A stretch of DNA of 5,060 bases from a virus (lineage: Duplodnaviria > Heunggongvirae > Uroviricota > Caudoviricetes), in the IMG/VR virus record IMGVR_UViG_2778261344_000001, positions 1-5,060 of that record. One strand, given 5' to 3'. The position numbers were made by a program. Each line of letters opens with the position of its first letter. The first letter of the stretch is position 1. This document shows, piece after piece, positions 1 through 3,000 of the stretch.

Positions 1-3000
1 GAAAAACGAGTATTTTTAGTCATCCTGTTTACCTCTTTCTCAGGGAGTTTAGTCTCCAGGATTTCCGGGGCGGTTCACTTTCAACTAGCTATTCACTATT
101 GGAAATCTTAAGAAATGGAACAAACAAGTTACAGCAAACTATCACAGCGAGAAATTGATCGCGCTGAAACTGATTTACTCATCAACCTGTCAACGCTTAC
201 CCAGCGCGGTCTGGCAAAGATGATTGGCTGTCATGAATCGAAGATAAGCAGAACGGACTGGAGATTTATTGCTTCGGTCTTGTGTGCTTTCGGAATGGCA
301 TCAGACATCAGTCCGATTAGCAGGGCTTTTAAGTATGCGCTTGATGAAATCACAAAGAAAAAATCCCCGGTGGCCGCCGGGGACTCTAAGCAAATTGATA
401 TGCAATTCTGAGGGAATTACTGGATCAATCCACAGGAGTCATTATGACAAATACAGCAAAAATACTCAACTTCGGCAGAGGTAACTTTGCCGGACAGGAG
501 CGTAATGTGGCAGATCTCGATGATGGTTACGCCAGACTATCAAATATGCTGATTGAGGCTTATTCAGGCGCAGATCTGACCAAGCGACAGTTTAAAGTGC
601 TGCTTGCCATTCTGCGTAAAACCTATGGGTGGAATAAACCAATGGACAGAATCACCGATTCTCAACTTAGCGAGATTACAAAGTTACCTGTCAAACGGTG
701 CAATGAAGCCAAGTTAGAACTCGTCAGAATGAATATTATCAAGCAGCAAGGCGGCATGTTTGGACCAAATAAAAACATCTCAGAATGGTGCATCCCTCAA
801 AACGAGGGAGGTTCCCCTAAAATGAGGGACATCCCTCAAAACGAGGGAAAATCCCCTAAAACGAGGGATAAAACATCCCTCAAATTAGGGGATTGCTATC
901 CCTCAAAACAGGGGGACACAAAAGACACTATTACAAAAGAAAAAAGAAAAGATTATTCGTCCGAGAATTCTGGCGAATCCTCTGACCAGCCAGAAAACGA
1001 TCTTTCTGTGGTTAAACCGGATGCTGCAATTCAGAGCGGCAGCAAGTGGGGAACAGCAGAAGACCTGACCGCCGCAGAGTGGATGTTTGACATGGTGAAG
1101 ACTATCGCGCCATCAGCCAGAAAACCGAATTTTGCTGGGTGGGCTAACGATATCCGCCTGATGCGTGAACGTGACGGACGTAACCACCGCGACATGTGCG
1201 TGCTGTTCCGCTGGGCATGCCAGGACAACTTCTGGTCCGGTAACGTGCTGAGCCCGGCCAAACTCCGCGACAAGTGGACCCAGCTCGAAATCAACCGTAA
1301 CAAGCAACAGGCAGTCGTGACAGCCAGCAAACCAAAACTCGACTTGACAAACACAGACTGGATTTACGGGGTGGATCTATGAAAAACATCGCCGCACAGA
1401 TGGTTAACTTTGACAGTGAGCAGATGCGTCGGATCGCCAACAACATGCCGGAACAGTACGACGAAAAGCCGCAGGTACAGCAGGTAGCGCAGATCATCAA
1501 CGGTGTGTTCAGCCAGTTACTGGCAACTTTCCCGGCGAGCCTGGCTAACCGTGACCAGAACGAACTGAACGAAATCCGCCGCCAGTGGGTTCTGGCTTTC
1601 CGGGAAAACGGGATCACCACAATGGAACAGGTTAACGCAGGAATGCGCGTAGCCCGTCGGCAGAATCGACCATTTCTGCCATCACCCGGGCAGTTTGTTG
1701 CATGGTGCCGGGAAGAAGCATCCGTTATCGCCGGACTGCCAAACGTCAGCGAGCTGGTTGATATGGTTTACGAGTATTGCCGGAAGCGAGGCCTGTATCC
1801 GGATGCGGAGTCTTATCCGTGGAAATCAAACGCGCACTACTGGCTGGTTACCAACCTGTATCAGAACATGCGGGCCAATGCGCTGACTGATGCGGAATTA
1901 CGGCGCAAGGCTGCCGATGAACTGACTTGTATGACCGCGCGAATTAACCGTGGTGAGGCAATACCTGAACCAGTAAAACAACTTCCTGTCATGGGGGGAA
2001 GACCTCTAAACCGTGCACAGGCTCTGGCGAAGATCGCAGAAATCAAAGCTAAGTTTGGGCTGAAAGGAGCAAGTGTATGACGGGCAAAGAGGCAATTATT
2101 CATTACCTGGGGACGCATAATAGCTTCTGTGCGCCGGACGTTGCCGCGTTAACAGGCGCAACAGTAACCAGCATAAATCAGGCCGCGGCTAAAATGGCAC
2201 GGGCAGGTCTTCTGGTTATCGAAGGTAAGGTCTGGCGAACGGTGTATTACCGGTTCGCTACTAGGGAAGAACGGGAAGGAAAGATGAGCACGAACCTGAT
2301 TTTTAAGGAGTGTCGCCAGAGTGCCGCGATGAAACGGGTATTGGCGGTATATGGAGTTAAAAGATGACCATCTACATCACTGAGCTAATAACAGGCCTGC
2401 TGGTAATCGCAGGCCTTTTTATTTGGGGGAGAGGGAAGTGAACGATAGCTACCGACAGTTTGAAAACTGGTGGTCAAAAGACAAAAGCCAGTTCACGGGA
2501 GACGATGAATTAAAAGAGTTTGCCTGGGTGATATGGCAGGCATCGCGCTCTGCTATTGAACTGGATATCGACTGGCCCGAATCGAATGACGACTTTTGGA
2601 AAGATGGTGAAGAAGGTGCTTATGCGATGGGTTATGAGGATGGGCGTGACAAAACGGTAATTGCAGTAATGAAAGCCATCAGGGCCGCAGGAATCAAAGA
2701 AAAGAATTTCGATTAAGCAAATATCACTTCAATAAATCGCTTTTAAGGCATCACAATCGCTCTGTAGCGAGGTAAACGCGTGCAAGGCATGCCAATAAGC
2801 AGCGAGAATGAAAAATGCGTCAGAATGCGTTTGAGGAGGTTTTAAGAAATGAGTACGATAGCTGAGCTTGTCAGGGCTAATTTTCGTGAAGAGTTGGTGC
2901 GTTGGTATCGGTATCGTTCATCGTCCAGTTTGCCGCTTGATGAGTTGTATGAGCATTCACCTGCCGCACGACGCTATCCGCGTGACCGTGTTCTTCGACG

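Follow-up and report, generated by a model that had tools for sequence, protein, structure and literature searches.

A phiTE_015 family gene at the head of the lambdoid nin region encodes a small acidic protein predicted to carry its charge in a variable loop

The gene considered here lies in a stretch of 5,060 nucleotides (positions 1 to 5,060 of the IMG/VR virus record IMGVR_UViG_2778261344_000001, hereafter the window), which is the early-right operon of a lambdoid prophage of the Shiga toxin (Stx) type, as judged from gene order and family matches. It is a small open reading frame (ORF) at 2438..2716 on the plus strand, with a GTG start, a TAA stop and a product of 92 amino acids (aa), which we will call the target. 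We find that it is genuine and widespread among lambdoid phages, where it is an accessory gene, and that it belongs to the Phage_phiTE_015 family (PF26207, PHROG 343). Within the nin region, which is non-essential, it takes the first cassette position, with the terminator tR2 on one side and ninB on the other. Alignments and structure prediction together place the whole net charge of the protein in a constrained yet lineage-variable loop on a roughly neutral scaffold. Our preferred reading, to which we attach low confidence, is that of a small stoichiometric protein-binding inhibitor or decoy, which would act through this acidic loop as an accessory of host takeover or counter-defence. The gene and its family are already catalogued, function aside; the value of the present analysis lies in placing this copy in its family, correcting the label 'NinA' that the locus bears in some records, tracing its adjacency to a restriction-alleviation gene (Lar) to the insertion of a cassette, and narrowing the experiments.

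Residues 1-92 match PHROG 343 (phrog_343, function unknown) with E = 4.6e-29, and RefSeq lists the identical protein, WP_001000127.1, as 'phiTE_015 family protein'. PF26207 is assigned to the 99%-identical cluster representative and to 76 of 82 homologues, leaving out six sequences that are short and partial; this assignment is the precomputed annotation of the homologues, the local copy of Pfam being one without the PF26207 model. The family takes its name from gene 015 of Pectobacterium phage phiTE, the record of which notes similarity to Orf41 of Pseudomonas phage D3. When the 126-sequence family alignment was compared with phiTE_015 using hhalign, the probability was 99.7% (E = 2.7e-25) over 90 aligned columns, and protein-level conservation reaches as far as this protein, with which 28% identity is shared. 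The target has in common with the family the full-length profile match, an architecture of ~90-100 aa, a position among small early accessory genes, and the motifs S-R-x-Q-F-E-x-W, W-x-x-W-Q-A-S-R-A-A-I-E and A-I-R-A-A-G-I-K-V-K. Its length is within the family range (~80-110 aa), and it possesses every residue that is at least 90% conserved (F8, E9, W33, A35, S36, R37, G85, and K89).

A profile search of 1.84 billion cluster representatives (50%-identity clusters) gave 574 members at E <= 1e-3, and a scan of species-representative genomes gave eight loci. The locus is present near full length in 399 of 5,426 complete E. coli genomes, and the gene is found in 933W, VT2-Sakai, and Stx1 phages; the surrounding region shares 99.8-100% identity with Stx1a-converting phages, with E. 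coli O103:H2, and with swine strains. Since the identical protein is encoded on at least 1000 contigs, the family numbers hundreds of cluster representatives, and the whole-gene ratio of nonsynonymous to synonymous substitution rates (dN/dS) is 0.2-0.4, the target is not a chance ORF. The GTG start is backed both by homologues with ATG at the equivalent residue (M-D/N-E-S-R-x-Q-F-E) and by the RefSeq annotation.

The product has 21 Asp and Glu residues, 12 Lys and Arg residues, no Cys, and a net charge of -9. A preliminary description of this DNA had given the same ORF and the same counts, with five Trp where we count six (6.5%); the isoelectric point (pI) of 4.40 agrees with the acidity that it reported, and the four clustered acidic runs that it listed are all present, at residues 21, 41, 56, and 66. 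Among the 11 genes of the window, the target encodes the sole strongly acidic product, whereas its richness in Trp is less distinctive, the proteins of the window averaging 3.0% Trp. Inspection of the sequence found no catalytic or metal-binding motifs.

The family possesses three conserved elements, namely S-R-x-Q-F-E-x-W; then, after a variable stretch, W-x-x-W-Q-A-S-R-A-A-I-E-(I-E-L-P); and finally A-I-R-A-A-G-I-K-V-K. In the target, residues 1-38 (2438..2551, plus strand) form the conserved Trp-rich part, predicted from the alignments and AlphaFold to be a helical hairpin (helices 3-14 and 23-38) with a net charge of -2; it holds the first motif and the W-x-x-W-Q-A-S-R of the second, and the segment between the two is swapped among relatives. 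Residues 39-70 (2552..2647, plus strand) are the acidic cassette AIELDIDWPESNDDFWKDGEEGAYAMGYEDGR, with a net charge of -9, or -0.28 per residue, and a low predicted local distance difference test score (pLDDT). Residues 71-92 (2648..2713, plus strand) take in the end of a conserved C-terminal helix (66-83) and a basic tail, A-I-R-A-A-G-I-K-x-K, and their net charge is +2. Two AlphaFold runs, made with 33 and 126 aligned sequences, agree on helices at ~3-14, 23-38, and 66-83 and on a loop of low confidence at ~39-65; the scores of the better model are a pLDDT of 73 and a predicted template modelling score (pTM) of 0.54, and no fold match to it was found.

Some family members (P0091, P0094, P0105, P0112, and P0138) carry N-terminal extensions, which are small modules of unknown function. 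These include a CxxCxGxG zinc-ribbon-like module and a type beginning MRWAIKHKSGR..., the two being fused in frame in P0112. In P0138 the N-terminal hairpin module occurs twice, which suggests that the hairpin is an independent unit. Domain fusions that might have hinted at a function were sought and none was retained, the two long 'hits' (P0148 and P0161) being repetitive artefacts. We also considered homology to lambda Ea22 (Ead/Ea22-like; locus L095, 1048-1596), the tail of which (...DAGIRIKGE) is like that of the family (...AAGIKVKGE); the match covers 14 residues with an hhalign probability of 8%, and homology was rejected.

Between the second and third conserved elements, the central segment is hypervariable in both sequence and length. 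It is negative in 94% of the members that do not have the cassette of the window, with a median of -4 over ~27 residues. As whole proteins, family members have a median pI of 4.99 and a median net charge of -4, and 16 of 144 are basic (these charge statistics refer to 144 non-redundant representatives of at most 200 aa from 50%-identity clusters). The cassette of the window, D-I-D-W-P-E...D-G-E-E-G-A-Y-A-M-G, marks out a subfamily, to which 21 of the 126 aligned sequences belong, and it sets the target apart as being among the most acidic members. It is kept across N-terminally swapped variants and in Hafnia. A comparison of the loop between Escherichia and Hafnia copies gave a proportion of nonsynonymous differences (pN) of 0.107 versus a proportion of synonymous differences (pS) of 0.766, and within its subfamily the cassette is under purifying selection.

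By its place among the genes, the target belongs to the N-antiterminated early-right operon, and a scan found no promoter of its own. In strain EDL933 induced with ciprofloxacin, the RNA of EDL933_1373 rose 76.9-fold (PMC11125564, S1 table). In prophage BP-933W this gene comes immediately behind ren (1372) and ahead of ninB (1375) (PMC11125564), and by gene order we assign it as the 98.9%-identical 933W orthologue of the target. Such expression fits an early lytic gene and not a moron expressed in the lysogen. This should be borne in mind when considering whether the gene might be a prophage moron for defence or superinfection exclusion, or might be conserved mainly as a recombination joint between modules, an explanation that we regard as very improbable. 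It would accommodate the limitation of conservation to the N- and C-terminal motifs around an exchangeable interior, the reuse of junction sequences at module borders, and the presence upstream of Ren, an exclusion-related protein. However, a gene without its own promoter, downstream of tR2, with RNA that goes up some 77-fold only on induction, shows early lytic behaviour; PADLOC models gave no match at E <= 1; and joints alone would not give protein-level conservation out to phiTE together with a dN/dS well below 1.

Under the preferred reading of a protein-binding inhibitor or decoy, the partner of the acidic, lineage-variable loop would be a protein of the host or of a rival phage, bound at a basic surface that probably serves to bind nucleic acid. 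Binding would occur early in lytic growth, and the role would be that of an inhibitor or decoy rather than that of a rigid DNA mimic of the Ocr/ArdA type or an enzyme. We infer a protein-binding role because there are no Cys residues or catalytic motifs, the scaffold is neutral, the acidic loop is exchangeable, expression is early, and the gene stands at the head of an accessory slot. Three features are compatible with counter-defence, these being the location in a non-essential, hypervariable slot for early genes; a central segment that is hypervariable yet predominantly acidic, and constrained within its subfamily; and the presence in phiTE of a Lar-like gene directly after phiTE_015. The preliminary description had spoken of a candidate anti-defence factor, and in the looser sense of an accessory or counter-defence gene this is compatible with the data, while its DNA-mimic part is not upheld, as discussed below. 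Probability that is not given to the explanations named in this text goes to mechanisms other than those weighed.

A bolder proposal, which we hold to be unlikely, is that the phiTE_015 family is an unrecognised class of phage counter-defence proteins, in which loops that are acidic and hypervariable would be presented on a conserved three-helix scaffold and act as short nucleic-acid-like decoys, with cassettes tuned to different DNA- or RNA-binding immune proteins of the host. If true, it would explain both the place of the gene at the head of a hypervariable slot and the recurrent pairing with Lar. If the acidic loop is a decoy that binds a target, the family would offer a modular scaffold for anti-defence or host takeover with hundreds of natural loop variants; if it is not, the gene is one more conserved member of the nin region. 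In either case, the target gene is carried by major Shiga-toxin phages, and its strong induction accompanies that of the toxin operon.

Several points weigh against the preferred reading of an inhibitor or decoy. The AlphaFold model is of moderate quality, and the loop is its least reliable part. The acidity of the family stems partly from the conserved I-E-I-E-L-P-E, which could, within the fold, simply be the partner of the basic G-I-K-V-K tail, and the hypervariability of the central segment may reflect lambdoid mosaic recombination at conserved joints and not an arms race. The protein of EDL933_1373 was not detected in the proteome of enterohaemorrhagic E. coli (EHEC) after induction (PMC11125564, S1 table). 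A search of the literature on the protein, its accessions, PF26207/PHROG 343, and anti-defence in the nin region found no functional study. Finally, the conserved synteny of the family is with NinB and not with anti-defence genes: NinB is encoded within 1.6 kb downstream in 68 of 78 (87%) non-redundant diverse loci, and in 21 of these 68 it abuts or overlaps the family gene.

The last point also favours an alternative in which the target is an accessory factor of phage recombination or replication, working with NinB (Orf), single-stranded DNA-binding protein (SSB), or replication proteins, for instance by modulating the loading of recombination proteins. The family gene always follows the replication module, which among close relatives in IMG/VR is either O/P-ren or a DnaB-type helicase, and the gene is expressed along with it from one operon. 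Prophages of Hafnia and Salmonella and other E. coli prophages likewise always have it after the replication module and before ninB, and Lar is absent there. Nevertheless, lambda and P22 possess a functional ninB directly after tR2 in the absence of this gene, from which it follows that NinB does not need it. In phiTE, the neighbours of phiTE_015 include Lar-like and NinX-like genes, and the 14-kb stretch examined has no gene annotated as NinB. Lambdoid gene order is, moreover, conserved by position regardless of direct interaction, and a hypervariable slot commonly lies between the family gene and ninB; in the 68 loci (L004-L186), this slot holds at least 18 unrelated small ORFs, which include putative membrane peptides, Cys-rich zinc-ribbon proteins, an ASCH-like protein, and Lar. 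Taking these together, we think a recombination or replication factor unlikely as well.

Somewhat less probable still is the explanation advanced in the preliminary description, that of a DNA mimic of the Ocr/ArdA type (Arn may be added), in which type I restriction enzymes, or other defence proteins that bind DNA, would be titrated by an acidic surface resembling B-DNA. T7 Ocr (gp0.3) and ArdA are, like the target, small, acidic, early-expressed proteins of phages or plasmids, and the pI, the net charge in 92 aa, and a 32-residue loop with a charge per residue similar to the -0.24 of Ocr are all in its favour. Measured over the whole protein, however, the target has -0.098 per residue and T7 Ocr -0.239 over its whole length (net -28 in 117 aa), that is, a density 2.4 times lower, and the family median lies lower again in absolute charge, with some basic members as noted. 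The predicted structure limits the charge to a loop of low predicted order, approximately one-third of the protein and placed without confidence, on a scaffold that is neutral to basic, whereas the known mimics are rigid elongated dimers covered with charge. Searches for anti-restriction families (Pfam, NCBIfam, PHROGs, and PADLOC) gave no match. Specifically, there was no hit to the Ocr family in Pfam, PHROG, or NCBIfam, and none to ArdA or ArdB-KlcA in Pfam at E <= 1, in PHROGs, or in NCBIfam; scans of NCBIfam and the local Pfam returned nothing relevant for the target. Nor did the sequences of the PDB contain anything at E <= 10, using phmmer with the target or hmmsearch with the 126-sequence profile, and fold similarity to a solved anti-CRISPR DNA mimic of the AcrIIA4/AcrF2 type was not found.

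The other argument for a DNA mimic was the company of anti-restriction genes. Taken loosely, this holds, with Lar two genes (359 bp) and a Dam-type methyltransferase four genes downstream; it is weak as an argument, Lar being downstream in 4 of 78 (~5%) non-redundant diverse loci. Blocking both type I restriction and modification would, by analogy with the known mechanisms of Ocr and Ral/Lar, also oppose Lar, which promotes modification. A weak recurrent association with Lar does exist: phiTE, an unrelated virulent phage, has a Lar-like gene (phiTE_014; Pfam E = 2.4e-11) immediately following phiTE_015, Lar follows the family gene in four or five other diverse loci, and in a few other loci it starts at a -3 overlap. 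This association may be the co-transfer of a block rather than a shared function. Among the close relatives in IMG/VR, the DUF7301-Lar arrangement is seen in 42 of 80, and in the others either ninB comes next or DUF7301 is present without Lar. DUF7301 is found directly upstream of the family gene in about a dozen further loci, and in the window it is downstream. Lar/Ral resembles the target in being a nin-region accessory gene that neighbours the family gene here and in phiTE, but its product is a Cys-rich zinc ribbon, and the target, which lacks Cys, shows no similarity to it.

In the window, the stop codon of the target is held within GATTAAGCAAA (2711..2721, plus strand), a mutated copy of the ninB start junction and a direct repeat of the true junction, GATGAAGCAAA (3267-3277, plus strand). 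In two loci (L092 and L174), a close homologue of the target reads through this junction directly into ninB. Because the junction is duplicated and these homologues read through it, the spacer, DUF7301, and Lar represent a cassette inserted between target and ninB (2722..3266, plus strand), which some close relatives have and others lack. The adjacency of Lar in the window, which counts against its use in support of DNA mimicry, is thus the product of a recombination hot spot at the ninB junction.

It is also worth noting that in other phages the gene preceding ninB ends in a tail such as ...EANIHASQRSNQK, encoded by the 5' overlap with ninB; these tails and the duplicated junction show that recombination occurs at the ninB joint. 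The spacer itself (2717-2848) comprises 132 bp of non-coding DNA between the target and DUF7301, an uncommon feature in a region where genes are packed as tightly as in nin. A 23-nt direct repeat, imperfectly matched, occurs within it at 2735-2757 and 2774-2796, and simple scans found neither a promoter nor a terminator in it.

Upstream of the target, the leader is that of ninB. The purine-rich Shine-Dalgarno region GGGGGAGAGGGAA (2425..2437, plus strand, from alignment with lambda and P22) is the ribosome-binding site of ninB in these two phages and serves the target here. The DNA through GGGGGAGAGGGAAGT, that is, up to position 2437, is identical to the ren-tR2-ninB leader of lambda and nearly identical in P22, and in the alignment the homology stops exactly at the start codon of the target. 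The preliminary description was therefore right that the ancestral ninB ribosome-binding site is used, and right that this is the first gene after tR2, with the nuance that a ninA-like mini-ORF spans the terminator. The tR2-type intrinsic terminator (2393..2426, plus strand; terminator scan) consists of a hairpin at 2393-2416, with an 8-bp stem (six G-C pairs) and an 8-nt loop, followed by a T-rich tail; it is identical to its lambda and P22 counterpart in the alignment, and the 933W record Y10775 annotates it as a rho-independent terminator.

The mini-ORF (2364..2441, plus strand) has 25 codons and encodes the putative hydrophobic peptide MTIYITELITGLLVIAGLFIWGRGK, as read from the sequence and from alignment with ninA of lambda and P22. 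Its ATG overlaps the stop codon of ren (ATGA, 2364-2367), and its TGA stop (2439-2441) overlaps the GTG start of the target (GTGA, 2438-2441); given these two overlaps, ren, ninA, and the target would form a translationally coupled chain. Care is needed with names at this point, since some phage records label the target locus 'NinA', after NinA of P22 and lambda. We reject this label: NinA is the ORF of ~25 codons that spans tR2, whereas the target is a separate, unrelated ORF, the next one downstream. The 933W record already distinguishes the two, the mini-ORF being orf4, 'homologous to ninA', and the target orf5, 'hypothetical'.

The remaining genes of the window were identified by family scans. 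In the order of the operon, cII (115-411, plus strand) is followed by O (444-1382), P (1379-2080), and ren (2077-2367). Beyond the target are DUF7301 (2849-3064, plus strand) and the Lar-family restriction-alleviation gene (3075-3311, plus strand), both matched in Pfam and NCBIfam, the 3' end of the latter overlapping ninB. The ninB gene itself (3268..3714, plus strand; Pfam NinB, E = 9e-49) encodes the Orf recombination mediator and is the usual 3' neighbour of the phiTE_015 family; it is followed by the Dam-type methyltransferase (3711-4238), ninE (4235-4417), and an ORF6N antirepressor-like gene (4692-5051).

Both ends of the window are occupied by insertion sequences (IS). At positions 1-78 an IS3-family element (IS1203/IS629-like) ends ~35 bp before cII, with the start of its transposase gene running leftwards on the minus strand. 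This junction on the cII side was found in no complete E. coli genome of the collection, the best place having 81% coverage and 91.6% identity. As the IS separates cII-O-P-ren-target from pR, cro, and nutR, this copy of the target may not be normally expressed, and the prophage is probably defective, as far as its sequence allows one to judge. At positions 4986-5060, the end of another IS3-family element truncates the ORF6N gene, a junction shared with E. coli strains 129 and EL361. Two IS copies in the same orientation accordingly bracket everything from cII to ORF6N. Just upstream of ORF6N, Rfam models scored above the gathering threshold for the Hfq-binding RNA isrK (4454-4530), the C4 antisense RNA (4556-4639), and the a1/b1 targets (4441-4493), and the RNAs at 4441-4639 make up a putative P1/P7-like c4-antirepressor immunity module inside the nin region.

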